From positions 368,760 through 400,759 of the forward strand of contig NZ_CP141821.1 of assembly GCF_035621495.1 (NCBI RefSeq): a stretch of DNA of 32,000 nt, written 5' to 3'. The stretch comes from Thermococcus sp. SY098 (GTDB lineage Archaea > Methanobacteriota_B > Thermococci > Thermococcales > Thermococcaceae). Below are positions 473 to 30,374 of this stretch, in pieces. How positions within the stretch are numbered: the stretch's first letter is position 1; the number at the start of each line of letters is the position of its first letter. Below the pieces are notes generated by a model. That model had not been told where the DNA came from and searched no databases. It saw only the letters and a program-made list of their open reading frames with translations. A program made the position numbers and the translations under genes.

Positions 473-1288
473 CTAAAGCTGGTAATTCACTGTTTCCTTT
501 AAAAGCTCAACGATCTTTTCATGGATGTCAACACTTATCCCATCAACGCTCATAACAGGTTTCTTGATTATTCCATCAATTAATCCAGCGGAGATTATAA
601 CTTCCAAGTTCTTTCGTTCATCCCAATCTTCCAAAAGGTTCTCCCCAACCTCAAGTGAAACCTGAGCGACCAGCCCATAAGCTCCCCAATTGGAAACTGC
701 AGACACTATGAGCTCATCGGTATCAACTATGGATGCGATTTTCCCTCCAAGAGGGATGTATTTTTTAATGAGATGCTTAATCTTTCCCATGCCTATTTCG
801 TTACCACCATCGCCAATTCCTATGGTTGGTATCCCTAATTTTTTGGCTTCTAAGAATATTTCATCAAAAAGGGTAGTGGTCTTTACTTCAAGCCCGCTCA
901 TAGAGTAATACTTTCCATCTTTTGCCCTTCCAACAGTTTCAACGCTTATCAGAAGGGAATACTCCGATACATCTGGCTGCTTCACAAAAGTAACGCCAAA
1001 AGGTTTTAGAGCCTTTCTCACCTGCTCATGTGCCCAGATCTCAGCTTTTCCACCTACTTTTTCAACAGTTTTGTAAAGTGCCAAAGCTCCCAATGGTCCA
1101 TCAGTTTCACAGATGTTCATGGGAGGGATGGGAAAGCTTGAGACAACTAAGACTTTCTCCGAATTATTTATGAGCAATTTTGCAGCATTTTTTAAGAAAT
1201 TGAAATTTCTGAGACGGTATTCCAGGTAAACCTTCAGAATTCCTCTGCCATAGATATCAGTATTTATGATGTGAGCTATCATTTTCAT
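473..1288 (-). CDS. DUF4392-type protein (family of the D-glutamate cyclase C-terminal domain)
   Basis: 271-aa ORF. Blocks FPIPPMNICETDGPLGALAL and IGIGDGGNEIGMG match my memory of DUF4392. Its ATG overlaps the stop of the upstream 59-aa ORF (ATGA). Confidence 0.5.
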   Translation of the reverse strand: MKMIAHIINTDIYGRGILKVYLEYRLRNFNFLKNAAKLLINNSEKVLVVSSFPIPPMNICETDGPLGALALYKTVEKVGGKAEIWAHEQVRKALKPFGVTFVKQPDVSEYSLLISVETVGRAKDGKYYSMSGLEVKTTTLFDEIFLEAKKLGIPTIGIGDGGNEIGMGKIKHLIKKYIPLGGKIASIVDTDELIVSAVSNWGAYGLVAQVSLEVGENLLEDWDERKNLEVIISAGLIDGIIKKPVMSVDGISVDIHEKIVELLKETVNYQL

Positions 1289-1464
1289 TCCTCTATCTCA
1301 TATACTACAACCTTAACTCTCTTACCCTTAAGGACCTCTTTCAGTTCCCACCAAAGTTTTGTTGGGGATTCCTGAGTGTGGATCAGCATATCACCATTTT
1401 CAAGTTTAACTATCTTTTCCTTATACTCAACAAAAACTCCCTCCTTGCTAAATATCTCTTTCAT
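1285..1464 (-). CDS. unannotated 59-aa protein, translationally coupled on both sides
   Basis: Hand translation: MKEIFSKEGVFVEYKEKIVKLENGDMLIHTQESPTKLWWELKEVLKGKRVKVVVYEIEE*. One residue below the track cut-off. ATGA overlap with the HAD stop (1461-1464) and ATGA overlap with the DUF4392 start (1285-1288). G-run (GGGGGG) 6 nt upstream of the ATG. Confidence 0.6.
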   Translation of the reverse strand: MKEIFSKEGVFVEYKEKIVKLENGDMLIHTQESPTKLWWELKEVLKGKRVKVVVYEIEE

Positions 1465-2105
1465 TTTAAACCCCCCAAGATTTTTCTCAACTCATGAAGG
1501 GTTCTAATTTCGTAATCAGCGAAGTTGTACCCTTTTTCATTATTTCTATTGATCCAAACAGCGATCATTCCAACATTTTTTGCACCGTATACATCCTGCT
1601 GCAAGCTGTCACCAATCATTATTGCCTCTTTTGGCTCAACTTTAAGCTTTTCCAATGCGTATATAAATATCTTTGGATCTGGCTTTATTGTGTTTACATC
1701 TTCTCTGGTGACAATTACGTCAAAATAATTGTCGAGTTTCGCTATTCTGAGTTTTAGTTTTTGATAAGTTGGTCCGCTTGTAACGACTCCAAGTTTGTAT
1801 CCCTCTGACTTTAACCACTCCAAAGTTGGCTTCACATCAGGAAACACATGGATTTTATGAGGATACGCAGTTAGAAGCTCCTCATACCTTAGATCTAAGT
1901 TGAAAAGCCTGAAAAAGAAGTTCCAGTCATGCCATTCGTAAGTATTCCTCCGACTCAGTATCTCCTCAAGAAACTTAGCCCTTGCCTCCTCCTTTCTAAT
2001 CTGAAGTCTCCTTGAAATCTCTTCATATACCTGAGGAAGAAAAAGCATCATTAATGGTTTTTCTGTCAAAAGTGTCTCATCTACATCAAACAGAATTGCT
2101 TCCAT
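1461..2105 (-). CDS. HAD-superfamily hydrolase/phosphatase (subfamily IA-like)
   Basis: 214 aa. N-terminal nucleophile motif FDVDETL (DxDxT), VVTSG (motif II-like), and K...GDSLQQD near the C-terminus (motifs III/IV). Confidence 0.8.
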   Translation of the reverse strand: MEAILFDVDETLLTEKPLMMLFLPQVYEEISRRLQIRKEEARAKFLEEILSRRNTYEWHDWNFFFRLFNLDLRYEELLTAYPHKIHVFPDVKPTLEWLKSEGYKLGVVTSGPTYQKLKLRIAKLDNYFDVIVTREDVNTIKPDPKIFIYALEKLKVEPKEAIMIGDSLQQDVYGAKNVGMIAVWINRNNEKGYNFADYEIRTLHELRKILGGLK

Positions 2106-2868
2106 TTGACCACCTCTTGATTAAAAGTGCTAGAATCTCGATTTCATTATCAAGTTCCTTGTTCATTCTAACTCCCCAGATTATGTCCTTTTCCCTTAGA
2201 AGATGCTGAAACTTTTCCAAAATCTCGTGGGCATTCTTTAGAGGCACGTTCTTACCTACCATTATGCTGATCAACCCCCTGTCCCATATTCCCCAGTTCC
2301 ATTCAAAGTTAACATCCCTTAGGATTCGCAGTATGCCTACGTTGCCTCCTTTAATCATGTTAAATAAGTCAGCGTAGTCAATGTTGACGAGCATTTGGTT
2401 TTCAAGGTAATAGTAAAGCTTTGAAAACATGAGTCCAATTTGTTTGCTTGCCGCATTAAATGCATCCTCTAAGGGTATTGCCGTGTATGCACTTAAAAAC
2501 TCTGAAAGTGAATCATAAAACACGGTTTCAAAACTATGAGCCCATTCTGGTTTCTCCTCATGGACGAGTTCCTTATAGGGGGAGAGCACATAAGCTAAAC
2601 GAATCACATTCTTCGTAAGAGCATCGTTGATGAGCCTTACAATCTCGACGTTAATCGGCTTGTCCTCAAAAATAATCCAGATTATTGTATCATCACTTAG
2701 GCTTCCAAAAAAGCTTTTAATTTGCTTTACAAAAGAATGTCTCTTTTTATCAAAGAGATAATAGGAGGAATCCAGAGGTACTTTGACAGCATTAGGTATG
2801 TCAATATTCCTCACAATCCTTATTCCGCTGTTTCCAATTCCAACAAAAATATAAGTGAAGGAAATCAT
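2086..2868 (-). CDS. degenerate FtsZ/tubulin-like protein lacking the GTP-binding signature
   Basis: 260 aa, colinear with FtsZ by eye. FVGIGNSGIRIV matches the first glycine loop. NIDYADLFNMIKGGNVGIL matches the T7 loop NxDxxD plus the following GG segment. LISIMVGKNVPLKNAHEI and IIWGVRMNKELDNEIEILALLI match C-terminal domain strands. The position of the GGGTGTG signature reads IIFEDKPIN. Starts 8 nt after the Hps-Phi stop and overlaps the HAD start by 20 nt. Confidence 0.55.
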   Translation of the reverse strand: MISFTYIFVGIGNSGIRIVRNIDIPNAVKVPLDSSYYLFDKKRHSFVKQIKSFFGSLSDDTIIWIIFEDKPINVEIVRLINDALTKNVIRLAYVLSPYKELVHEEKPEWAHSFETVFYDSLSEFLSAYTAIPLEDAFNAASKQIGLMFSKLYYYLENQMLVNIDYADLFNMIKGGNVGILRILRDVNFEWNWGIWDRGLISIMVGKNVPLKNAHEILEKFQHLLREKDIIWGVRMNKELDNEIEILALLIKRWSNGSNSV

Positions 2869-2876
2869 GGTGACCC

Positions 2877-4097
2877 CTATTCTAAGGTCGCATGCTTTTT
2901 CTTCATATCCTTTTCGGTCTTCTGGAATGTTGCCATTAAGAGTGCAATTATCCCATCCAGAAAGACCATTGTAGAGTCCTCAAAAAGCGTTCCCATCGGA
3001 GCTATCCATTTGTACTGAGTCAGCATCTGTCTTGCTATGTAATCAGTCGGAACATCAGTTTTTGCTCTTCCTGGAATTTCAACCACGACATCAGCCAACT
3101 TCCCAAGTGTTGAGTTCTTGTATGAGGTTATGGCAACGACTTTTCCTCCCTGCTTCTTTGCGATTTCAGCTGCGTCAACTATTGTCCTCGTTTCCCCACT
3201 CCCACTGATGGCTATTAGCAAATCACCTTCTTCAAATGCGGGGGTTATTGTTTCTCCAACCACATAAACATTGAAATCAAGATGCATTAACCTCATGGCA
3301 AAAGCTTTACCAACCAGTCCACTCCTTCCTGCCCCGTAAATGAAAATTTTGTTAGCCCCAATCATTGCATCTACCATTCCCCTTACCTCTTCCAATCTAA
3401 GTGCATCAGCGACATGATCAATATGTTCAGTTATATCATGCATTGCCTTTCTGATTGTCTGCATGTACTCGCCCCAAAAGAGATCAATTATCCTCCTTGT
3501 AACTTCTTCTGGATTCTCCGACTTGGTTATTGCTCCACCGACGATAATTATGGTGGCACCAAGTTCAATGACTTTAGGAATAGTCTCTAAGTTCAATCCT
3601 CCTGCAACAGCAACTGGGATCTTGACGGCTTTAACAACTTTTTCCAAATCTTCAAGCGGGCTCTTTCCTTGTGCTTGCTCGTCTATCCCTGTATGAACAA
3701 GAATATAATGAACTCCCATCTTTTCAAGTTCTTTGGCCCTTTTGACCTTATCTTTAACTCCAATTAGATCAACCATGACCTTTATTCCATATTTTCTTGC
3801 TACCATAAGAGCATCTTTTATTGTTTTATTGTCAGCAACTCCCAAAATAGAAACTACATCTGCTCCATGCCTCGCTGCCATTTCAACTTCTAATGCTCCA
3901 GTGTCCATAGTTTTTAGGTCAGCAACTATTTTTCTATCAGGAAAACGTCTTTTCATCAGCTCAACTGCTCTCATTCCTTCTTTTTTAATAAGAGGTGTTC
4001 CAACCTCGAGCCAATGAGCACCGCCGCGAGCAGCTTTCTCTGCTATAGAAATGGCCTGCTCAATATCAGTTAAGTCTAAAGCAACCTGGAGAATCAT
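2877..4097 (-). CDS. hps-phi: bifunctional 3-hexulose-6-phosphate synthase / 6-phospho-3-hexuloisomerase (Hps-Phi fusion)
   Basis: N-terminal half is OMP-decarboxylase-like Hps (ILQVALDL, DLKTMD, HTGIDEQ). C-terminal half is a SIS-domain Phi (IFIYGAGRSGLVGKAFAMRL, ISGSGET). Fusion is as known in Pyrococcus/Thermococcus. Track ORF extends to 4184, but ATG at 4097 (MILQVALDL) has GGGGGAG 7 nt upstream and gives 406 aa, the size I recall for the Thermococcales fusion. Confidence 0.9.
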   Translation of the reverse strand: MILQVALDLTDIEQAISIAEKAARGGAHWLEVGTPLIKKEGMRAVELMKRRFPDRKIVADLKTMDTGALEVEMAARHGADVVSILGVADNKTIKDALMVARKYGIKVMVDLIGVKDKVKRAKELEKMGVHYILVHTGIDEQAQGKSPLEDLEKVVKAVKIPVAVAGGLNLETIPKVIELGATIIIVGGAITKSENPEEVTRRIIDLFWGEYMQTIRKAMHDITEHIDHVADALRLEEVRGMVDAMIGANKIFIYGAGRSGLVGKAFAMRLMHLDFNVYVVGETITPAFEEGDLLIAISGSGETRTIVDAAEIAKKQGGKVVAITSYKNSTLGKLADVVVEIPGRAKTDVPTDYIARQMLTQYKWIAPMGTLFEDSTMVFLDGIIALLMATFQKTEKDMKKKHATLE

Positions 4098-4198
4098 CTT
4101 GAACTCCCCCGAATATTTTCTTAGAGCTTCCACCTTAACATCAATTGCACACTTTTTAACTTTAACTCTCAAAATTTTTGACAAGAATTTGCAAACAT

Positions 4199-4226
4199 AA
4201 TTAAATAATTATTTGATTATTTAATT
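4199..4226. promoter_or_regulatory. perfect 11-bp inverted repeat in divergent promoter region
   Basis: AATTAAATAAT (4199-4209), TATTTG, ATTATTTAATT (4216-4226). Lies between the hps-phi operon (minus) and the arginase-like operon (plus). The AT-only composition weakens its significance. Confidence 0.3.
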
Positions 4227-4300
4227 GTGTGTCAAGTGAGAACAGACAACAGTGGACTAAGTTTAAAAAGAGTTCACTGAATTAAATCTTGGGAATTACG

Positions 4301-5029
4301 ATGGTTACATTTATTCCGTTTGGAGAAAAACCAAACAGAGAGGGCGTCATGTATGTTCTCAATTTTCTTCAAAAAAACAAGCTTATTGAGGATTACATGG
4401 TTGTTGAATCGAATACCATTGAACTGCTTTCTGAGAGATTGCCCGTGGATGAGGCATACATAATCGGTGATCATCTTGCAACGTATGGAATACTTCAAAA
4501 GCTAAAGCCAAAGGCAGTTATAAGCATAGATGCTCACACTGACTTAATGCATGATTATCTGGATCATGGTTCTTGGCTCGCTTATGCTCTTTCCGAGAGA
4601 ATAATTGAAAAGGCATCAATTATTGGCCCTGTTCTGATGATACCTACCACAGAAGGGACCGAACTGTGGACAAGACGGGTTAAGATATTCCCCGCCCTAC
4701 CCAGAAGCAGAAAAACAAGAGGTAGATGGAAAGCTTACAAGAGCTTGAAGAATCATCCGATAGATGAGATAATAAAAGATACTAAAAAGTACCTCGGAGA
4801 AGAAATATATCTTACCATTGATTTGGATGTTCTCCTACCTGAGTACAAAATTGCCCGATTTCAGCATGGTGAACTTACGTTGGAGGAACTTCTCAACATC
4901 CTTGAAGAAATTAAGAGGAACTTTAACATCATGGCATTTGATATAGCGGAGATTTCAGATAAGATAAAACGTTCCCGTTTAGGAAAAAAGGCCTTAGCTG
5001 ATGTATTTCAACTGTTAAGCGGTGAGTAA
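4301..5029 (+). CDS. arginase/agmatinase/ureohydrolase-family protein
   Basis: Motifs IGDHLATYG, SIDAHTDL and TIDLDVL resemble the Mn-binding GGDH / DAHxD / DxDxxD blocks of the arginase fold. Track start 4289 is TTG, and the first ATG is at 4301. TTTAAAAA at 4262-4269 is a plausible TATA, giving a short or no leader. Confidence 0.55.
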   Translation: MVTFIPFGEKPNREGVMYVLNFLQKNKLIEDYMVVESNTIELLSERLPVDEAYIIGDHLATYGILQKLKPKAVISIDAHTDLMHDYLDHGSWLAYALSERIIEKASIIGPVLMIPTTEGTELWTRRVKIFPALPRSRKTRGRWKAYKSLKNHPIDEIIKDTKKYLGEEIYLTIDLDVLLPEYKIARFQHGELTLEELLNILEEIKRNFNIMAFDIAEISDKIKRSRLGKKALADVFQLLSGE

Positions 5030-5031
5030 CA

Positions 5032-5352
5032 ATGGCACTAAGCGATGAAGAGATAAGAAAAATAATAACCCCTCTCCTACTTTCAGGGGCAAAGATGCTC
5101 GACAAGCATTGCCCCAAGTGCGGCTCCCCCCTCTTTGAATTAAATGGAAGGGTCTTTTGTCCTGTGTGTGAGCATCGAAAAAAACAAAGAAAAGCAGAGC
5201 TGAAGGGTATTGAAGAGATACTAATGGAGAAGCTAAAGGTATTGGCAAACGATTTACCTGATGATATTGAGAAACTCGAAAAGCACCTAAGGGTCATGGA
5301 AAAGATAATTGAAATCTTGGAGAGATACAAAAAACTGGAGGGAGAAGAATGA
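5032..5352 (+). CDS. zinc-ribbon protein of the autoantigen-p27 / UPF0148 type
   Basis: 106 aa. CPKCGSPLFELNGRVFCPVC zinc ribbon followed by a charged coiled-coil tail. Starts 2 nt after the upstream stop. Confidence 0.6.
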   Translation: MALSDEEIRKIITPLLLSGAKMLDKHCPKCGSPLFELNGRVFCPVCEHRKKQRKAELKGIEEILMEKLKVLANDLPDDIEKLEKHLRVMEKIIEILERYKKLEGEE

Positions 5353-5561
5353 AACATTTAAAGGTTTTAAACATTCTTAAAGGAAAAGAGCTAACAGCTG
5401 AAGAAATTTCAAGAGAAGTTAGGATTTCTCATCCTGAAGTCAGAAGGATATTGCTTAGATTGGCAGAACAGGGGAAAGTGGAAAGCTTTCAGAAAGAGGG
5501 CAAAATACTCTGGAGGCTCAAGCAAAGAACCCGCGAAGAAGAGGAATTCAAATATGTATAA
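5349..5561 (+). CDS. small winged-helix DNA-binding protein
   Basis: 70 aa. LTAEEISREVRISHPEVRRILLRLAEQGKVE is an HTH-plus-wing pattern. ATGA overlap with the upstream gene. Confidence 0.45.
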   Translation: MKHLKVLNILKGKELTAEEISREVRISHPEVRRILLRLAEQGKVESFQKEGKILWRLKQRTREEEEFKYV

Positions 5562-6620: not shown

Positions 6621-9600
6621 TCACTTTAAGATGTACTGTTTAATTTCCTCATACATATTGTTGAGAACTTCCTGATAATCTGCTTTGTTTTCCTCTACCA
6701 AGTCCATAAGCTCTTCAAGCTGTCTCGTCCTTTCTTCACTTACAAGCTCTTTGTATTTACTTATGAGATAGTGATAGACTTTAGTTCCAAGTTCTGTTGG
6801 GACTAACTTCTTCCTTCCTTTTGTCTCAATGACATAGTGTCTGTCCAAGAGTGTCTTAACGATCTTTGCATAGGTAGATGGCCTTCCAATCTTACGCTCT
6901 TTCATAAGGGCAATCAAATCGCCCTGAGTGTAAAGGGAAACTTTTGGTGCTCTCCATTTCTTAACTTCAATGACTTTGAGTTTCTGTCCTTTTTCAAGCT
7001 TTGGCAGCTGTCTTAATGGGGGTGCCCTTAATTTAGTCCAGCCATCAAAGATCACTTCAATATATCCCTCAATCTCAGTCTTGGCAACTCTTGCATCGAT
7101 CACAGCTTTCTCATAGAGAACTTTCGCAGGTTTCATCTGCGATGCCATGAACCGCTTAAATATCATGTCATAAAGCCTGAAGTGATCTCTTGTAAGTCCC
7201 CTTGCAAGGGTAATGACACCATCTCTCAGCAGTTGCATCAGTCTTCCGGTGTCAATTGGTCTTGTGGGTCTTATACACTCGTGTGCTCCCTCTTCACCCC
7301 ACTTTCTTGGAGCGAAGTATTCTTCCCCAATTTCTTCGCTAATGTATTCCTTTGCAACTTCAATACCCGTATTGCTAACGTGAGTTGAATCAGTTCTGTG
7401 ATAAGTAATAAGACCAAGCTCGAAAAGATCCTGAGCCAATTGCATTGTATGAGGAGCAGAAAATCCTAAAAATCTTGAAGCATCTTGAAGCATTGTATCT
7501 GTGGTATACGGTGGGAATGGGTTGATCTCCTTCTCTTCAATTTTGACATCCTCAACGATTATTTCGTTGACTTCCTCTTTAACGCCTTCAAGGGTTACGC
7601 TTAAGCCGTTCTCCAAAGTCAGCGCCATGAAATCTGTCTCGCTCTCTACAAATTCCTTGTATCTCTGTATCACCCATCCAAGAACTGGCGTCTGAACCCT
7701 ACCAGCCGATAAGTTTCTGCTCTCAAAGACCTCCCAGAGCTTTTGGCTGAGCTCGAATCCAATCCATCTGTCCTCTATTCTCCTCACTAATTGGGCATTG
7801 ACCCTAAACTCATTAACGTCTCTCGCTTCATTCAATGCTTTCAATATGGCCGGTCTTGTAACTTCGTGGAACTCAATACGCTTGATGTTTGGGGTGTAAG
7901 GACTTAAGACATTCCTGATATCCCATGCAATCTTTTCTCCCTCGACATCTGGGTCAGTCCCTATGAGAATTTCATCAACTTCCTGAGCTATCTCACGCAT
8001 TGCAATTACATTTTCCAGAGCATCCCTAACATTCCTTGAGCCACATCTTGGACAGACTCCTCTCTCCTCCCAGTCAACGAACTGATGACCGCAGTCCCTA
8101 CAGCGTTTTATTGTGTCATAGACTGGTATGAAGTAGAGCTTTCCGTTCCTCTCCTCTATGATGACACCATGGTAACCTTCCGTTGTAACGAGGTCAAACA
8201 TATGTCCGCCGCTTGCCAGAATCGTCAGCATCCTGTCTCCTATGCTTACCTCATATGCAACCAAGTCGCCAATTCTTCTCTTGCTTGGCTGTCCAAAGAA
8301 ATTAGCAATTGTCCTGGCTTTATTGGGTGATTCAACGATCATTAGAGCAGACTTAACTAAATCCTTGGTCTTCTCACTTATCTTTCCAGCAAGAATTAGC
8401 CTAACTTTCTCCCTATCGGCATCGATCTCTCTCAAAAGCTCCTCAAGATTGAGCTCTTCAAACGACTTCATCTCAAACTCAGCAAAGCGCCATCTCATCT
8501 GCCTCTTCAAGCCGTTGAAGACCTTTTCGTTGTCCACTATTATTACGCTCAGGCCCTTTGTAATTCCACCAGCAAAGAGACGTGAAGTCCTTCCGCTTGC
8601 TTGGATATAAGTCCTAACATCGGGAATCTCAATGTACCATTTTCCCTCCTCTTCTTTGAGACTGACGAATGGATCTTCTTCTATGCGCTTGAGCACTTCC
8701 TTCTTCTTCAGAACTCTCCTCAGGAACTCAACTGCCTGTCTGAATACTTCAAGGACATGGCTATGGAATCCTTCCAACGGTAGACCTTCAGCCAATGCCT
8801 CTTCAATTTTCATCAATTCAAACTGTGGAATGTTTCTAATCAAACGCCTCAAGCGAGCATAAAGCCTTTCGCCTTCTCTTCTATCTTCTTCATCAAGGAA
8901 TTCCATGACTTCACTCATCAGTCCTAAAACCCTGTAAATTGTGGGCTGCTCTAAGTCAAGGCTGAACCTGAATTTCGGCACACCTGTAAAGATTGCATAT
9001 CTGATCAAGTATGGCAGATCTAATCCCCTAACTATTGTTCCGTAATAGGTTGCAACACCAACTAAATAGTCAATCTCTTCGTTTTCAAACTTCTCCAAGC
9101 CTTTCTTGTTTCTTGCGGAGACAAGCTCAACCTTGAAACCTCTCTCTTGGAGATATTGTGTAAGCTTCTCAGCGTAACCAATTCCTTGATCAATTGGGAC
9201 AAATATTAGTCCTCCCTTACCGAGTTTTGTCAAAAGTTCTTCAACATGTTCCTCAATTGACTTCTCTGGGAAGAGATAGCTGTCAACAACATTTCTCAAC
9301 GCTGACCTTCCGCTTCCCACTTCGAAGTCCAAAAGCTCACGGTAGAGCTTTATCCTATCTCCCCTTGCGCTTCCAGTTGCTGAAGCTACAATTAATACTC
9401 CAATTTTATTCTCACGCTTGAATTTTCTTATTTCCCTCTCAAGCTTGTTAATCTGCTTGTTGAGTTCCTTCAACTGTTCTTGCTTGTCTGGGCTGTTGCC
9501 ATTAAGGAATTTTGCCATCTGCTTCTTCAGCCTTATAATTTCCCATGCCTTCTGGATTATCTCTTCTGTAAAGCCGAGCAGAATAAGGGAGCGGTCAATG

Positions 9601-10271
9601 TTCTTTGAGGCTTTCAAAAATGCGTCAACATCATCAACAAAAATGAAGTCAAATCTCTTATCCTTGAGCATCTCGTCGAAGTTTCTCGCAAGCCATTGGG
9701 CTGAAGTTATGAGAATATCAAAATCTCCGTTCATGATTTTTTCAGTCATCTCCTCTTTTTCCTTCTTCTTCATGCCACCGTGGTAATAGGCAAGGTTAAT
9801 CTCAATTCCAGCCCTCTCTGCAAATGTTTTCACTCTCTTAATTGTCTGCACCACAAGCGGTGTTGTTGGTAAGACTATGTAGCTCTTCTTTTTCTTTTTG
9901 GCATAATACAATGCCATGAATGATCCAAAAACACTTTTGCCCATGCCTGTTGGAGCTATGATGGAAAAGCTCTTATTTTTAATTAGTCTCTTCACCCAGG
10001 TTTTTTGAGCACTCCAGAAGTTAAAACCCGTGGCTTTCTCAAAGAGCTCTTCAATCTCTCTCAACCTTTTCTCAAGCTTGTAGATATTCTCCCAGTGCTT
10101 CAGTGTTCCACGCAGCTTGAGAGCTTCTCTAATGCCCGTTATCAAATCAAAGTAAATTTCGGCCTGAATTTCCTTATCGAGACAAACATCACATGGATGC
10201 TTCTTGTACAAGCGTTCATCACTAATCCTATCTTCACAATTTGGGCACATTTCCCTATAAATCGCTTTCAT
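6621..10271 (-). CDS. rgy: reverse gyrase
   Basis: N-terminal Zn finger CPNC..CDVC, helicase Walker [14 protein letters not shown] box, Toprim IVESPNKA, second Zn finger CRDC..CPRC, topo-IA active-site block ITYHRTDS. No intein-like insertion. ATG at 10271 ([12 protein letters not shown]) has GAGGGTGAG upstream (track start 10307). Confidence 0.97.
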
Positions 10272-10348
10272 TTTCTCACCCTCTAATGTTCTATTTAGGT
10301 AATGCAAAGTTTATAAGGGTTTTTTAGATTCCCATTGTGGGTGGGACA

Positions 10349-12113: not shown

Positions 12114-12653
12114 TCAAATGGAGCATTTAGAGAAACGTTTAAATTCCATCAACTCTCTCTCAAGCTCCTCGGTGAGCTCATAATCATAAAAGACTTTCTT
12201 AAATTCCCCAAACTGTATGAGCAAGGACTCATAAAATTCCTCTGAAAACTCCATCTTTAGCAGAGCAAGAGCTTTCCTGAATAGCCTCGCTGCTTCGCTT
12301 CCGCTTTCATCGTGATTCATATAATACACCAGCTCCTTTAAGATAATGGACCTTCCAATACCAGGATTTTCAAAAATGATCTCATCTGCAACAGCCTGTG
12401 GCGAGAGCTCCACTAAATGGCTTGAAGTCTCAAAATATCTCCCATTTTCAAAAGCTTCCAGGACAGCAAATACATGCTTGCAGTCTTTCCCAATAGGACA
12501 TGTACATCTGCTCTTTCCACTTTTTATGCCGACCTCAACGTAGTACGGATAAGTCCCAAGAACCTTTCCATAAAGCCTATCCCCATACCTCAGCACCCAC
12601 AGAACCTTGCCCTTTTTGAAATACTGCTCTCCCTTCTTTTTTGCATTGTTCAT
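12114..12653 (-). CDS. SWIM zinc-finger protein
   Basis: CTCPIGKDCKH fits the SWIM signature CxCx(n)CxH. Helical C-terminal half. First ATG at 12653 (track TTG at 12677). Lies 56 nt upstream of the ATPase on the same strand. Confidence 0.65.
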   Translation of the reverse strand: MNNAKKKGEQYFKKGKVLWVLRYGDRLYGKVLGTYPYYVEVGIKSGKSRCTCPIGKDCKHVFAVLEAFENGRYFETSSHLVELSPQAVADEIIFENPGIGRSIILKELVYYMNHDESGSEAARLFRKALALLKMEFSEEFYESLLIQFGEFKKVFYDYELTEELERELMEFKRFSKCSI

Positions 12654-12766
12654 GTTAACCACTAAAGTTAGTAACAATGGAGACTTTTAAAGATTTCGCT
12701 CTGCGGTACTATTAAAGGGCGAAACCTATAAATTCAGGGGAGATGACTAAATGTTGAGGTGATGGC

Positions 12767-13000
12767 ATGGACGTTTTTGAGCTTGCGCGGAGGTATCATC
12801 AAGAGCTTGGGATAAAAGAGCCGAGCTTTGCAACTTTGGCTGCGGAAATTTTTGGAGAGCTTGGCCTCAAAATATACGAGCACTTAAAGGGCGAAGGCTA
12901 CACTCTCAAAAGCACGCGCTTTATTGACTACGATAAAAGCCTTGTATTGGAAGTTGTAAAAGAAGAAAAAGCCTTCGAGATTCTTCTCAGAAAGGCTTAA
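12767..13000 (+). CDS. hypothetical protein (77 aa)
   Basis: GAGGTGAT SD 3 nt before the ATG. No motif recognised. Confidence 0.5.
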   Translation: MDVFELARRYHQELGIKEPSFATLAAEIFGELGLKIYEHLKGEGYTLKSTRFIDYDKSLVLEVVKEEKAFEILLRKA

Positions 13001-14304
13001 ACTCTGTAGTCAAACGCTATTTCCTTCTTTTCTCCTGGCTTTACGGTTATCTTAAACTCCACATAGTGTGCTGTTTCATCTATTGGCTTTACTGTAGAGC
13101 TCAATATTTTGCCGCTCCACTTGTAATGCCTGACAACAACTTCTTTCGTCCTGTTTCCAAAATTCTCAATTGTAATCCTCACTTTGTAGTACGTTGAATC
13201 GCTTTCTCTTCTCTGCTCAAGGATTTCTGTTTTGCCTTTCAGATCAACATCCCTTCCAAGCTTGAGCCTCAATGTATCGCCTTTAGCGGTGTGATCAATT
13301 TTCTGCTCGCCAATTAAAACTGTTGTATCGTTCATTTCTTTGTAAATCTCTACAATGCCAGCTGGAAGCACTTTCTCAGCTTTAAATGATATAATCTCGT
13401 AAATTTCATTACTTCCACCGTAGGGATAGCTCTCGTATAGATACTCCCTTTCAAAAGATGTCTCTTGGGTAATGTAGGGTATCATCTTCTTTTCAAATGG
13501 GTTTACACTGAGCATTCCAAGGTTGTAAAGGTAAAATGCTTCAATTTTTTGAGGTTGTTCTGGAATTCCAGTAGCTGCTTTTTCTGCCATCGCATAAACC
13601 CTCTCCATAACGACTTGTGGAGGAGCATAGAAGTTTACTTCTCCCGAAACGAGCATGACTTTAAAGTCTTCAAATGTCTTGTTTGTAGGATTGTCAATCA
13701 CTATGTATCCAAACAGCAGGGCATTGTTGGTTAGGTAAAGCTTATACCTTGAGCTCCAGCCGATCGACTGAACTCTGTAAATCAGCTTGAACTTATACTT
13801 TCCATCTTCCTCAGCTTGTATAATGGCATAAGTTTGGGCCTTGGCTTTGCTTCCCAGTTCAGCAAGCTTCGTATATGCAACTTCCTCAGGTTCAATTAGA
13901 TAGTAAGATTCTCCCTGAACCGCTATCTTGCCTTCTTTGTAACCTAAAAACTTTCCGGTTATCGTTTCACCGCTCTTCAGCTTTATTGTGACAGTTTTTC
14001 CAATGTTTGCCTCAAGCACTCCTTTGCCTGGGTATGCCTGCGAAATAATTCCTAAGACCATAACTTTATCGCTTAAAGGCTTTAGTGTAACTTCCTCAAT
14101 ATTCAAACCTTCAATCTCCTCAAGGGGAACTTCGTTGAATCCCTTTTTAAGGTCTAAGGCAACTGTTTTCTCGACAACTCCAATGCGCGCAGAGTCGTAG
14201 AGAACCAGAGTCCCACTTTCATCTGCGGCCCTTGTTTGATGAAGTACTATCATTGCCAAGAGCAAAAAAGCCACAAAAATTCCACTCAAAATTTTCTTTT
14301 TCAT
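12997..14304 (-). CDS. secreted/anchored DUF4139-type protein
   Basis: 435 aa. N-terminal signal/anchor MKKKILSGIFVAFLLLAMIV. All-beta looking repeats. N- and C-terminal patterns (LVLYDSARIGVVEKTV..., ...VVVRHYKWSG...KKEIAFDYRV) resemble the DUF4140/DUF4139 family as I recall it. Confidence 0.5.
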   Translation of the reverse strand: MKKKILSGIFVAFLLLAMIVLHQTRAADESGTLVLYDSARIGVVEKTVALDLKKGFNEVPLEEIEGLNIEEVTLKPLSDKVMVLGIISQAYPGKGVLEANIGKTVTIKLKSGETITGKFLGYKEGKIAVQGESYYLIEPEEVAYTKLAELGSKAKAQTYAIIQAEEDGKYKFKLIYRVQSIGWSSRYKLYLTNNALLFGYIVIDNPTNKTFEDFKVMLVSGEVNFYAPPQVVMERVYAMAEKAATGIPEQPQKIEAFYLYNLGMLSVNPFEKKMIPYITQETSFEREYLYESYPYGGSNEIYEIISFKAEKVLPAGIVEIYKEMNDTTVLIGEQKIDHTAKGDTLRLKLGRDVDLKGKTEILEQRRESDSTYYKVRITIENFGNRTKEVVVRHYKWSGKILSSTVKPIDETAHYVEFKITVKPGEKKEIAFDYRV

Positions 14305-24068: not shown

Positions 24069-25241
24069 TCAGGGCTGTTCTCTTCTTCTAACGGGCATAC
24101 GCGCTTTTCCTTTTAGGATACCTCTGCCAGCTAAATAGCAAGTTCTCAGTTCCTCCCTAAGCTTTATCATAAGCTCCTGGGCTGTGTCATAATCCCCGTT
24201 CCTTACAGCTGCTTTTATTGCCTCCATCAGTTGCAGTGCCGCTGTTACATTGACTCCTAATCTTTCCATGACCATGAGCTGAGCTTCGACTCTTATGATT
24301 TCCCTTTGTAGCTTCATCTTAATGTCGCTCATTATCATTTTTCTAATGTCCTCACCGGCAAATCTGATAACAACTTCTGCTTTGGATTTTGCGGCTATTG
24401 CAAGACCATATGCCAGTCCATACTTTCCACTGTTGTATGCATCTTTTGCATCTTCAAGTTGCTTTTCTGCTATTCTTAAGAGGGTTTTAAGGGCAGGATT
24501 TGTTGCATTCTCAGCGAGTTCTTTTGCTGTGTTCACTTTTTCCTCAGCTATTTGTATTGCCTCAAGGGCCCTCTCAGCAGTTATGTTGAGATGGAGCTCT
24601 GTGCAGTTACATTCCTGCTTTCTAAGCTGTTTCATAATGTAAAGCATTGTTTGATTCATGGTGGGGGTTCCAATTATTGTGAAGTTGCCTGCCCTGACGT
24701 GTAGCCGCTCCATAACTTTTGTAATATTCGTGGTTTGGTTCACCAGCACTATCATTGCCCTCTCACGGATTGCAAGTTGCAGTGCCTTTTCAATTCCTGC
24801 TAAATCCGTACCTGCCACGAGGATAACTTTGTTTTGTAGCTGTAGTTGAAACTTTACAGTGGCGTTTCTAATTACTGCTAAATCTGTTTCATACCTGTTC
24901 TGTCCCCACCATCTTTCAACGCTAATGCCTAAATTCTGCAGGTCTTCAACGTATTCCTCTGGAACTGCCACTGGTCCCCCAATAATAATGACCTCATCTG
25001 GGGCATAGCTGATTATCTCCGCAGTTACATTGGGATTGTAGATTCCCCAAGGAGTCTTAACTATTACAACATTCACATTTACCGTTATATTCGCAATATA
25101 ATCGGCCAATGCACAGTCCGCCTCATTATCACTCACTAAAATGACTACCATGGTTTCTGACGCATTTACAGGCGTGAATGTCAATGGGAGACCCAAGATT
25201 ATCAAGCCAAACATCACTGACAGCATTTTTTTCCACATCAT
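24069..25241 (-). CDS. secreted, sequon-rich protein with CWB2-like N-terminal modules and helical C-terminal half
   Basis: Signal peptide MMWKKMLSVMFGLIILGLPLTFTPVNA. ILVSDNEADCALADYIA...VIIIGGPVAVPEEYV...WWGQNRYETDLAV resembles cell-wall-binding-repeat-2 modules. 12 N-x-S/T sequons counted by hand. Basic tail KGKARMPVRRREQP. Own SD GGGGGTGATGGAG. Confidence 0.5.
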   Translation of the reverse strand: MMWKKMLSVMFGLIILGLPLTFTPVNASETMVVILVSDNEADCALADYIANITVNVNVVIVKTPWGIYNPNVTAEIISYAPDEVIIIGGPVAVPEEYVEDLQNLGISVERWWGQNRYETDLAVIRNATVKFQLQLQNKVILVAGTDLAGIEKALQLAIRERAMIVLVNQTTNITKVMERLHVRAGNFTIIGTPTMNQTMLYIMKQLRKQECNCTELHLNITAERALEAIQIAEEKVNTAKELAENATNPALKTLLRIAEKQLEDAKDAYNSGKYGLAYGLAIAAKSKAEVVIRFAGEDIRKMIMSDIKMKLQREIIRVEAQLMVMERLGVNVTAALQLMEAIKAAVRNGDYDTAQELMIKLREELRTCYLAGRGILKGKARMPVRRREQP

Positions 25242-29404: not shown

Positions 29405-29575
29405 ATGGATGAGAAGCTAAAAGCCTGCAAAAACTGTCGGTGGTTTGGCCCAATTGACTCTTACTTTCTGACACAGGGGATATGCAGAAGGCAGATGAAA
29501 ACAACCCACATGAACGCTATCTGTGATGACTGGGAGCCGTTATGGGGCAATAAAAATGAAGATAGCAAGGGTTAA
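29405..29575 (+). CDS. 56-aa four-cysteine mini-protein
   Basis: MDEKLKACKNCRWFGPIDSYFLTQGICRRQMKTTHMNAICDDWEPLW... has a CxxC plus two distal Cys. GGTGG SD. Starts 1 nt after the MoaD-like stop. Confidence 0.5.
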   Translation: MDEKLKACKNCRWFGPIDSYFLTQGICRRQMKTTHMNAICDDWEPLWGNKNEDSKG

Positions 29576-30374
29576 AGGATTGGACTTCAAAATTCCAAAA
29601 GAGGCATGGTTTAGCTTTTTTAATACTCCCTATCCCGGACATAAGGTTGGAACTGCAATTGATGTCTATTTTCCAAACAAAGTCCTTTTCCCATTTGAAG
29701 AAGGAAAGGCTCTGGAGATTAAGAAAGTTAGAACTCCACGATATGTTCCAATTAGGGAAGATTACCTCACGATTTTCCAAGTTGAGGGGTTCTGCTTAAA
29801 AGCTCTTCATGTTAAACCCAGCATTAAAGTTGGAGATAAGGTCTATTTAGGAGATGAGATCGGTGAATTGGTTGTTTCAGGCTTTTTTAGGCCGTGGAGC
29901 GACAGACATGCCCACTTTGAACTGAGGGATTGCAAAGATAGATACAGGGCAAGAGGAGGCTTTTTAATGCATCCAAAAATTCTAAAACTCGTGCCCACAA
30001 TTAAAGGGAACAGGTTTGAGGTTGTTGAGAAGACTGAACACTACTACTGGCTGAAGCCTCTAAAGAAAGGAAGGAAAAATCTAACGCCCTTATCTTTCGA
30101 CGATATCCCAATTGAAGGTGGCTTGCCTCACTATCACTACGGAGCAATTTTTGGCAAACGAAGAAAAGTTGAGATTCTCGAAGCAAAGTTTTCGGTGGAT
30201 CAAGAGCTTCCAAACGGAGTTGGGATTTTTAATGCTGATTTCCAGATATTTGCAAATCAACAAAAAGTGAAGGGTATAGGGATTTACTGCAACCAAGAGA
30301 AGATAAAGCTGATTGGGGGAAAGTTTGAGATTGGTGATGTTGTGGAGATTAGGTTCTTAAAAAATGTTACATAA
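29556..30374 (+). CDS. cytoplasmic M23/LytM-like (HxH) domain protein
   Basis: GHKVGTAIDV...LHVKPSIKVGDKVYLGDEIGELVVSG....DRHAHFELR mirrors the M23 pattern H..D ... V.vGd.V..Gd.IG..G ... HxHfE. No signal peptide. Start is ATG 29556 (alternatives GTG 29523 / ATG 29526). Confidence 0.4.
   Translation: MKIARVKGLDFKIPKEAWFSFFNTPYPGHKVGTAIDVYFPNKVLFPFEEGKALEIKKVRTPRYVPIREDYLTIFQVEGFCLKALHVKPSIKVGDKVYLGDEIGELVVSGFFRPWSDRHAHFELRDCKDRYRARGGFLMHPKILKLVPTIKGNRFEVVEKTEHYYWLKPLKKGRKNLTPLSFDDIPIEGGLPHYHYGAIFGKRRKVEILEAKFSVDQELPNGVGIFNADFQIFANQQKVKGIGIYCNQEKIKLIGGKFEIGDVVEIRFLKNVT

Follow-up and report, generated by a model that had tools for sequence, protein, structure and literature searches.

A diverged FtsZ paralogue of Thermococcales that keeps the T7 loop, lacks the canonical GTP loops and is encoded directly after hps

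What is a relative of FtsZ doing as the second cistron of an operon of metabolic genes? The question is raised by a window of 32,000 nucleotides (nt) from the chromosome of Thermococcus sp. SY098 (contig NZ_CP141821.1, positions 368,760 to 400,759; "the window" refers to this whole stretch, and coordinates are counted from its first letter). In it, the gene hps-phi, encoding a bifunctional 3-hexulose-6-phosphate synthase/6-phospho-3-hexuloisomerase, is followed by a gene here called ftsZL (for FtsZ-like), and then by genes encoding a HAD-family phosphatase, a small protein of 59 amino acids (aa) and a DUF4392 protein, the five forming a tightly packed co-directional block (Table 1). An earlier note, made from the sequence alone, had taken the product of ftsZL to be a pseudo-GTPase related to FtsZ. 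I consider here whether FtsZL is indeed a homologue of FtsZ, what it has retained of the parent protein, and with what partner it might act.

FtsZL is almost certainly an FtsZ-derived protein without the canonical GTP site. As a single sequence it falls below the threshold of every curated FtsZ or tubulin model. A search of Pfam gave FtsZ_C (PF12327) at an E value of 0.0043 and 17.8 bits, against a cutoff of 27, with no match to PF00091 (Tubulin) and none to Tubulin_2 (PF13809) at E ≤ 1; the NCBIfam model TIGR00065 scored 25.2 bits against a cutoff of 295.2, and phmmer against the PDB found the FtsZ of Methanocaldococcus jannaschii at E = 0.014. Since the single-sequence searches were sub-threshold, a family profile was needed, and one was built from 39 Thermococcales homologues. 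Against the PDB this profile matched M. jannaschii FtsZ1 at E = 2.4e-7, bacterial FtsZ proteins at E values of at least 0.003, and CetZ (3zid) at 0.073. When the family was aligned by hhalign with an alignment of bona fide FtsZ proteins, whose members had been checked against Pfam, the probability of homology was 98.8% (E = 9.5e-17), with residues 12-250 of the query placed on positions 28-325 of the template.

The structural evidence agrees. An AlphaFold2 model of FtsZL, made with the 39-sequence alignment, has a mean predicted local distance difference test score (pLDDT) of 85.5 and a predicted template modelling score (pTM) of 0.86. Each of its 50 best Foldseek matches in the PDB is an FtsZ chain (E from 1.3e-12 to 7e-11; template modelling scores of 0.61-0.71, normalised to the query), and folds other than that of FtsZ could be rejected on this account. 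The elements of the FtsZ/tubulin superfamily fold are all present: a Rossmann-like N-terminal domain, the core helix H7, the T7 loop and a four-stranded C-terminal domain. Because the profile, hhalign and AlphaFold2/Foldseek results agree, the homology to FtsZ is real and spans both domains. FtsZL has diverged strongly from archaeal FtsZ, of which it is a paralogue, and has a minimal fold of about 250 aa that does without T3, T4, H9 and the C-terminal linker and peptide. The earlier note had seen the colinearity with FtsZ by eye and had proposed profile and structure searches as a check; these do recover the tubulin/FtsZ fold, and the alignment, with T3 and T4 deleted, shows no intact nucleotide-binding pocket.

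The losses include the loops that bind phosphate. The segment FVGIGNSG does fall on the first Gly loop (T1) of FtsZ, as the earlier note had it, and the family pattern there is GIGxxG, as compared to GxGGxGxN in FtsZ: G10 and G12 never vary and at least 90% of members have G15, while the second Gly and the Asn of FtsZ are not conserved (a few members read GIGGAGSN). At T2, the NTD motif of FtsZ has become N/D-P/S..Y. The hhalign alignment then places a deletion of some 30 residues across H2-S3-T3, taking with it the GAGxxP loop that senses the gamma-phosphate; in the AlphaFold2 model, S2 leads by way of a short helix into the equivalent of H3, and there is no S3. The tubulin signature (T4) has gone, as the earlier note had claimed, but not by the substitution it had read: nine residues (gLGGgTGsG) are deleted between IIF and EDKPIN. 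Across the family the site reads (F)EDKPxN, with N73 invariant and E75 nearly so. Remnants of T5 (TPxxELV), T6 (FETVFYDSL) and H7 (AFxxAS) can still be recognized, the last with Ser or Thr throughout the family in place of the Asp of the FtsZ consensus AFxxAD. The loss of T3 and that of H9 are additions to the motifs listed in the earlier note. Since both the T3 and the T4 phosphate loops are missing, canonical GTP binding by FtsZL is, to judge from the alignment, very unlikely.

The T7 loop is kept, just as had been proposed. The family pattern is MLVN(I/V)DxAD, and N162, D164, A166 and D167 are invariant in the 39 Thermococcales sequences, whose overall identity is about 45-60%, as well as in the second lineage described below. 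The C-terminal strands S9 and S10 are conserved as (D)IIWG...E(I/V)LALLV(K/R)xW, and the version in the window, DIIWGV...EILALLI, aligns to S9-S10 of FtsZ, in keeping with the earlier note; within the IIWG motif, which is like that of archaeal FtsZ1, I230, W231 and G232 are invariant. A Trp-rich loop, FxWxWG(I/V)W(D/E)RG, with W190, W192, G193, W195 and G198 invariant, stands in the place of H9 and sits where tubulin has its M-loop. Most members stop 0-2 residues past S10 (ending in KRW) and so have neither the linker nor the conserved peptide by which FtsZ binds membrane anchors (SepF in archaea). The tail NGSNSV in the window protein is an out-of-frame reading of the HAD codons M-E-A-I-L-F-D and is probably not a functional C-terminal peptide. 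The tails found in the family (SNGSNSV, GGAL) were considered as possible anchor-binding peptides and rejected, as they are the start codons of the HAD gene read out of frame and are absent in many members.

Despite its divergence, FtsZL is a functional gene under strong purifying selection. Ratios of nonsynonymous to synonymous substitution (dN/dS) between the window gene and its close relatives range from 0.03 to 0.075, comparable to those of the adjacent HAD enzyme, and sequences with 44-87% identity to the window protein share 49 invariant positions. The homologues fall into 79 clusters, of which all that are named come from Thermococcus or Pyrococcus, the nearest being that of T. paralvinellae (85% identity); no orthologue from P. 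furiosus was named among the matches listed. Most are labelled "hypothetical protein", and a few bear the machine-given names "FtsZ/tubulin family protein" or "cell division GTPase FtsZ". An exhaustive HMMER profile search of 1.84 billion cluster representatives returned one full-length cluster (at 50% identity), several fragments, and a protein of 178 aa, P0086; the next matches were true FtsZ proteins, at E values of at least 1e-7 to 1e-4. A search with a profile made from both lineages found none beyond Thermococcales and that of P0086.

P0086 and three relatives constitute a second, shorter FtsZL lineage (loci L038-L041), from uncultured and apparently thermophilic archaea (metagenome-assembled genome, or MAG, GCA_964436705.1, with 35% GC and a thermophile-like amino acid composition). 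These proteins are about 30% identical to the FtsZL of Thermococcales. They keep the T7 loop as GLVN(V/I)DLADL, together with WDRGL, (F)VWG and a C-terminal Trp that aligns with W253, and they lack T1, S1-H1-S2, H6 and the first half of H7. Their last 100 or so residues match the FtsZL family with a probability of 98.1% (E = 1e-13, by hhalign) and, independently, FtsZ itself with a probability of 92% (E = 6e-7); the AlphaFold2 model of the 178-aa protein (pLDDT 56.7) was too poor for use. Comparison of the two lineages reduces the family-wide core to T7 and the C-terminal subdomain, which by alignment corresponds to the half of FtsZ that activates GTP hydrolysis in the neighboring subunit. The same asymmetry is seen, in milder form, within Thermococcales, where 26 of the 97 positions of T7 and the C-terminal domain are invariant, as compared to 19 of 132 in the N-terminal domain, and where the H6/H6-H7 segment of the top face is the least conserved (0.45).

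The setting of the gene is also conserved. The earlier note placed ftsZL 8 nt after hps-phi and overlapping the HAD gene, and a reading of the sequence bears this out: the hps-phi stop codon (TAG at 2879-2877) is separated by an 8-nt spacer (2869-2876) from the start of ftsZL; a Shine-Dalgarno (SD)-like sequence, AGGGGT at 2878-2873, overlaps the stop; and the 3' end of ftsZL shares 20 nt (2086..2105, minus strand) with the start of the HAD gene (ATG at 2105). In a tblastn survey of the context of 37 Thermococcales loci, ftsZL lies directly downstream of hps-phi in every locus with enough flanking sequence, save for one (L031) with a single inserted gene, and the HAD gene and the 59-aa open reading frame (ORF) are immediately downstream of ftsZL in every locus with enough flank. 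The spacing between hps and ftsZL is 8-14 nt, and SD-like sequences are present. The same gene order is found in T. kodakarensis, P. abyssi and three metagenomic Thermococci, with differing flanks; at least three different upstream and downstream contexts occur among the Thermococcales loci. In the second lineage, the 178-aa gene follows a stand-alone 207-aa hps by 13-14 nt in all four loci. This Hps (229.7 bits to TIGR03128, cutoff 200) is 58% identical to the Hps domain of the window, and neither the HAD nor the DUF4392 gene is nearby; the flanking genes, which encode ProRS, PAN and an AAC(3)-like acetyltransferase, are unrelated.

The invariant association, then, is hps followed by ftsZL, in two lineages. 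What had been treated as an unexpected context is the most conserved property of the FtsZL family and no accident of one genome, and since the linkage is conserved in both lineages, any mechanism must account for Hps. The two proteins have changed to very different degrees: Hps-Phi is 88-99% identical across the loci, while FtsZL in most of them is 45-63% identical, with higher values confined to the window's nearest relatives.

Table 1. Coordinates of ftsZL, its motifs and the other genes of the operon in the window, and of the genes of the 178-aa lineage in their own loci.
Feature	Coordinates	Strand	Remarks
ftsZ-like gene (FtsZL)	2086..2868	-	260 aa, ATG start
T1 Gly-loop remnant GIGNSG, residues 10-15	2824..2841	-	FVGIGNSG aligned to FtsZ viGvGgaGnN (hhalign)
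Site of the lost tubulin signature (T4), FEDKPIN, residues 67-73	2650..2670	-	9-residue deletion of gLGGgTGsG between IIF and EDKPIN (hhalign)
T7 loop MLVNIDYAD (NxDxAD), residues 159-167	2368..2394	-	aligned to FtsZ glINiDfAD
Trp-rich loop FEWNWGIWDRG, residues 188-198	2275..2307	-	replaces H9 between S7 and S8; ~15-residue gap relative to FtsZ (hhalign)
IIWG, residues 229-232, start of S9	2173..2184	-	aligned to IIWGA of M. jannaschii FtsZ1
hps-phi, bifunctional 3-hexulose-6-phosphate synthase/6-phospho-3-hexuloisomerase	2877..4097	-	operon gene 1; NCBIfam NF041755, 554 bits (cutoff 500)
HAD-IA phosphatase (TIGR02253 family)	1461..2105	-	operon gene 3; PDB 4ygq, E = 1e-106
Conserved 59-aa ORF	1285..1464	-	operon gene 4; overlaps the HAD and DUF4392 genes by 4 nt each
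DUF4392/D-glutamate-cyclase-like C-terminal domain protein, TON_0340 orthologue	473..1288	-	operon gene 5; Pfam PF14336, E = 2.6e-65; PDB 4dwz, E = 1e-111
178-aa lineage genes	L038:1581-2117, L039:1745-2281, L040:1197-1565, L041:10638-11174		

What might such a protein do? In a tubulin or FtsZ polymer, the T7 residues complete the GTPase site of the subunit below, and no other role is known for them; mutants of Escherichia coli FtsZ altered in D209 or D212 still fold and polymerize. The residues are thus dispensable for folding and yet invariant in FtsZL, which argues for a functional rather than a structural constraint, and their invariance even in the lineage that lacks T1 and much of the N-terminal domain argues for T7 as the face through which the protein works. 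The reading I put forward, with a probability of roughly 0.4, is that this face docks on a protein of the FtsZ family, with some coupling to Hps. Not binding GTP in the canonical way, FtsZL could not take the place of the lower subunit in a longitudinal contact of the FtsZ type; it would work instead through its T7 (bottom) face, as a binding module that does not propagate. That face would dock on the exposed GTP face of the host's FtsZ1, FtsZ2 or CetZ, completing the GTPase site of the partner and at the same time occluding the face that a monomer needs in order to join a growing end. The outcome might be sequestration of monomers, binding to minus ends or stimulation of the GTPase, and production together with Hps, perhaps in physical association with it, could couple the synthesis of pentoses and nucleotide precursors to cytoskeletal or division dynamics. 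The growing end of FtsZ filaments exposes the C-terminal (T7) interface (PMC9897490), so a subunit with only a T7 face would block a nucleotide face and not cap the growing end. By this analogy, FtsZL would be a sequestrator, a minus-end binder or a factor resembling a GTPase-activating protein, instead of a plus-end cap; the earlier note had suggested a filament cap or a regulator of FtsZ/CetZ polymers.

Several considerations weigh against docking on FtsZ or CetZ. In the loci examined, the gene for FtsZL is never beside division genes and always beside hps, and this conserved order points to a pathway shared with Hps or to a physical complex of the two proteins. Translational coupling to hps (the 8-nt spacer, with its own SD sequence) suggests that FtsZL is made in roughly stoichiometric and not regulatory amounts, and a potent inhibitor of FtsZ at the level of a central enzyme would be harmful. 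In addition, the degenerate N-terminal domain is still well conserved within Thermococcales (0.96 for S6-T6, FETVFYDSL; also GIGxxG of T1) and may yet bind something. A hybrid is possible, in which FtsZL is bound to Hps or co-regulated with it and docks on FtsZ or CetZ; this would account for both the invariance of T7 and the linkage to hps.

These considerations lead to a doubtful but substantial alternative, that FtsZL has no cytoskeletal target and forms a complex with Hps or Hps-Phi, regulating, stabilizing or completing it. The acidic T7 loop might, for example, cap the Mg2+-dependent aldolase site, or the protein might help dispose of the formaldehyde released when the ribulose monophosphate (RuMP) pathway is run in reverse to make ribulose-5-phosphate. 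Its position directly after hps in the 37 Thermococcales loci (where flank suffices) despite varied flanks, the tight spacing of 8-14 nt with SD-like sequences, and the persistence of the linkage in a lineage about 30% identical, with a stand-alone Hps and without the HAD and DUF4392 genes, are all consistent with such a complex. Hps, moreover, is fused in methanogens to Fae, a formaldehyde-handling partner, and the models NF009833 (a fusion of 5,6,7,8-tetrahydromethanopterin hydro-lyase with Hps) and NF005442 (a fusion of Hps with a ribonuclease regulator) indicate that it joins with varied partners. No fusion of Hps with an FtsZ-like protein was present among the profile-search matches, however, and no FtsZ-fold protein is known to act as the partner of a TIM-barrel enzyme. 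The dissimilar rates of evolution, evident in the identities of 88-99% and 45-63%, also speak against a complex, and the Hps reading by itself leaves unexplained why exactly the three catalytic residues of T7 should be invariant. A more novel reading, which I consider unlikely, is that a metabolic enzyme has taken over the T7 loop and the C-terminal GTPase-activating domain of FtsZ as one of its subunits, with NxDxAD inserted at the Mg2+-dependent aldolase site of Hps. In that role, FtsZL might help to trap formaldehyde or hand it on and so drive the unfavorable reverse RuMP reaction that supplies Thermococcales with pentoses; it is also possible that it tethers Hps to polymers of FtsZ or CetZ.

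Other readings make more of the N-terminal domain. The remodelled pocket could bind a ligand (a nucleoside or nucleotide held without the canonical phosphate contacts, a pterin or folate, or a sugar phosphate), making FtsZL a sensor or carrier, a proposal compatible with the others. The conservation of GIGxxG in T1, of E100 at the position of the T5 Glu, of D119/S120 at T6, and of an aromatic residue at the base-stacking position of H7 would fit, but with T3 and T4 deleted, the H7 Asp of FtsZ replaced by Ser or Thr, and both the T1 region and H6/first half of H7 absent from the short lineage, I regard it as improbable. Still less credible, and decidedly improbable, is a scaffold in which FtsZL polymerizes head-to-tail without GTP and organizes the enzymes of the operon. 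Thermococcales proteins do have conserved residues on both faces (T1, T5, T6 and T7) and a confidently predicted two-domain fold that is complete, but the T3 loop and the top-face contacts of H6-H7 are deleted or variable, and the 178-aa lineage, having lost T1/S1-H1-S2 and H6/first half of H7 and matching the family by hhalign only over its last 100 or so residues, shows that head-to-tail assembly is not family-wide. That the ORF is a decaying relic or miscalled and without function is scarcely believable: it fails all the curated family thresholds and evolves faster than Hps-Phi, but it is intact in the 79 clusters and 37 loci, with its 49 invariant positions, and the low dN/dS effectively refutes the idea.

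It is useful to set FtsZL beside systems already known. Archaeal FtsZ1 (M. jannaschii FtsZ, PDB 1fsz and 1w5a), the best profile match, has the same two-domain fold in the same order and shares with FtsZL the NxDxxD of T7, the IIWG strand S9 and the AFxxA segment of H7. Relative to it, FtsZL lacks T3, the GGGTGSG of T4, H9 and the C-terminal linker and peptide, is about 100 residues shorter, fails the curated models, and lies in an hps operon instead of a division or ribosomal-protein context. FtsZl-1/Tubulin_2 proteins are, like FtsZL, divergent members of the FtsZ-tubulin superfamily outside division. They differ in that they reportedly retain the GTP-binding motifs and are linked to membrane-remodelling operons. 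They too were recognized by profile searches and conserved operon context (Makarova & Koonin 2010; PMC2875224). CetZ (PDB 3zid) is another tubulin-superfamily paralogue found in Thermococcales, with all the GTP loops and a tubulin-like C-terminal helix, whereas FtsZL has no GTP loops and ends at S10, and the family profile matches CetZ much more weakly than FtsZ1 (0.073 versus 2.4e-7). The neighborhoods of archaeal cetZ genes are enriched in genes for the biosynthesis of nucleotides and cofactors (PMC9856176).

Among regulators of FtsZ, a functional precedent for a T7 donor is ARC3, the inhibitor of chloroplast division in plants, in which an FtsZ-derived domain regulates FtsZ polymers and does not build them. 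It differs from FtsZL in being a eukaryotic protein of several domains (FtsZ-like, middle and MORN) that is part of a positioning system of the Min type, with no metabolic operon. ARC3, which carries the FtsZ-like domain, directly inhibits assembly of the Z ring and is reported to enhance the GTPase activity of FtsZ2 (PMC12232670). SulA, MciZ and MipZ, small protein inhibitors with folds unrelated to that of FtsZ, block assembly by way of one longitudinal interface, as is proposed for FtsZL, which would occupy the nucleotide face through a genuine T7 loop, opposite to the face that these three use. SulA and MciZ bind the T7/C-terminal face of FtsZ. Known modes of inhibition comprise sequestration of monomers and capping of the C-terminal (plus-end) interface, and MipZ contacts the region of the T7 loop and H10 (PMC9897490).

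A 2023 survey of CetZ and the tubulin superfamily in archaea lists FtsZ1, FtsZ2 and a single CetZ in Thermococcales, with an extra divergent superfamily protein in only two strains (PMC9856176). As the survey counts no additional protein of the superfamily across the order, the FtsZL family was not captured. The family is also absent from a study of FtsZ/tubulin evolution (PMC9871819) and from the paper that described two new FtsZ-like families (PMC2875224), and searches of the literature, including searches by locus tag, found no paper on the gene or the family. I have accordingly found no prior account of how the family has lost the GTP loops or kept T7, or of its conserved linkage to hps in two lineages; the label "FtsZ-like" for a few members was already in the databases.

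FtsZL is thus a fourth tubulin-superfamily protein across the Thermococcus and Pyrococcus genomes recovered, one that Pfam-based surveys have missed. It is in effect a natural separation-of-function variant, with the T7/GTPase-activating half kept and the nucleotide-binding half eroded and, in the second lineage, mostly gone. Should FtsZ or CetZ prove to be its target, FtsZL would be the first FtsZ-derived regulator from archaea, linking the synthesis of pentoses and nucleotide precursors to division. If it acts on Hps, a cytoskeletal fold would have been recruited into metabolism, the first tubulin-superfamily module in central metabolism, and it might bear on what draws the reverse RuMP pathway forward and on the fate of its formaldehyde. 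T. kodakarensis is genetically tractable, which puts both readings within reach of direct test.

The remaining parts of the operon call for some comment. Called mechanically, the ORF of hps-phi reaches a TTG at 4184 and has 435 aa, but all homologues have 406 aa and begin MILQVALDL, which makes the ATG at 4097 the probable start. In that case, 4098-4288 would be a promoter region common to hps-phi and a divergent gene of the arginase family; a scan for promoters and terminators of the bacterial type was uninformative for this archaeal DNA. The 59-aa ORF has orthologues in six loci, with 18 invariant positions that include PTxLWWxLKE, and tblastn matches in 33 of the 37 loci, the missing cases including truncated loci. 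Searches of Pfam and the PDB with it gave no match. Its conservation points to a real small protein of the operon. A structural study of TON_0340, the orthologue of the DUF4392 protein, describes it as a probable Mn2+-dependent phosphatase and does not mention the operon (PMC5132392). Nearly all loci have a DUF4392 gene; in one MAG (L014:5559-7537), unrelated ORFs of 164, 156 and 334 aa take its place. By that replacement, DUF4392 is not obligatory in the operon, unlike hps, ftsZL, the HAD gene and the 59-aa ORF. The gene inserted between hps-phi and ftsZL in L031 (3207-3908, from a Thermococcus MAG) encodes a 233-aa protein like the histidine phosphatases/phosphoglycerate mutases (dPGM), with the motif RHGESLWN; the operon seems to recruit phosphatases and mutases that act on sugar phosphates.

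Beyond the operon, the window is Thermococcus chromosome of about 40% GC, with genes for reverse gyrase, pyruvate kinase and a tungsten aldehyde:ferredoxin oxidoreductase. The divergent genes beside hps-phi form a trio with overlapping or abutting ends (4289-5561, plus strand), encoding the arginase-family protein (246 aa) and proteins of 106 and 70 aa. The position of the 106-aa protein matches that of a gene called PF06677 (Auto_anti-p27) in loci L001 and L005, and the 70-aa protein has the position of their helix-turn-helix gene. This arrangement stands beside hps-phi in many Thermococcus loci (L001 and L005, and by the arginase match in the tblastn survey), and not in Pyrococcus. Four proteins of the window have no Pfam match at E ≤ 1e-5: those encoded at 12997-14304 (minus strand, 435 aa), 24069-25241 (minus, 390 aa), 29523-30374 (plus, 283 aa) and 12114-12677 (minus, 187 aa). 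Finally, the reverse gyrase of the window (6621-10307, minus strand) has 1228 aa and no intein domains, while its orthologue in T. kodakarensis (L001:1-1122) is called as a protein of 1711 aa with Intein_splicing and LAGLIDADG domains.

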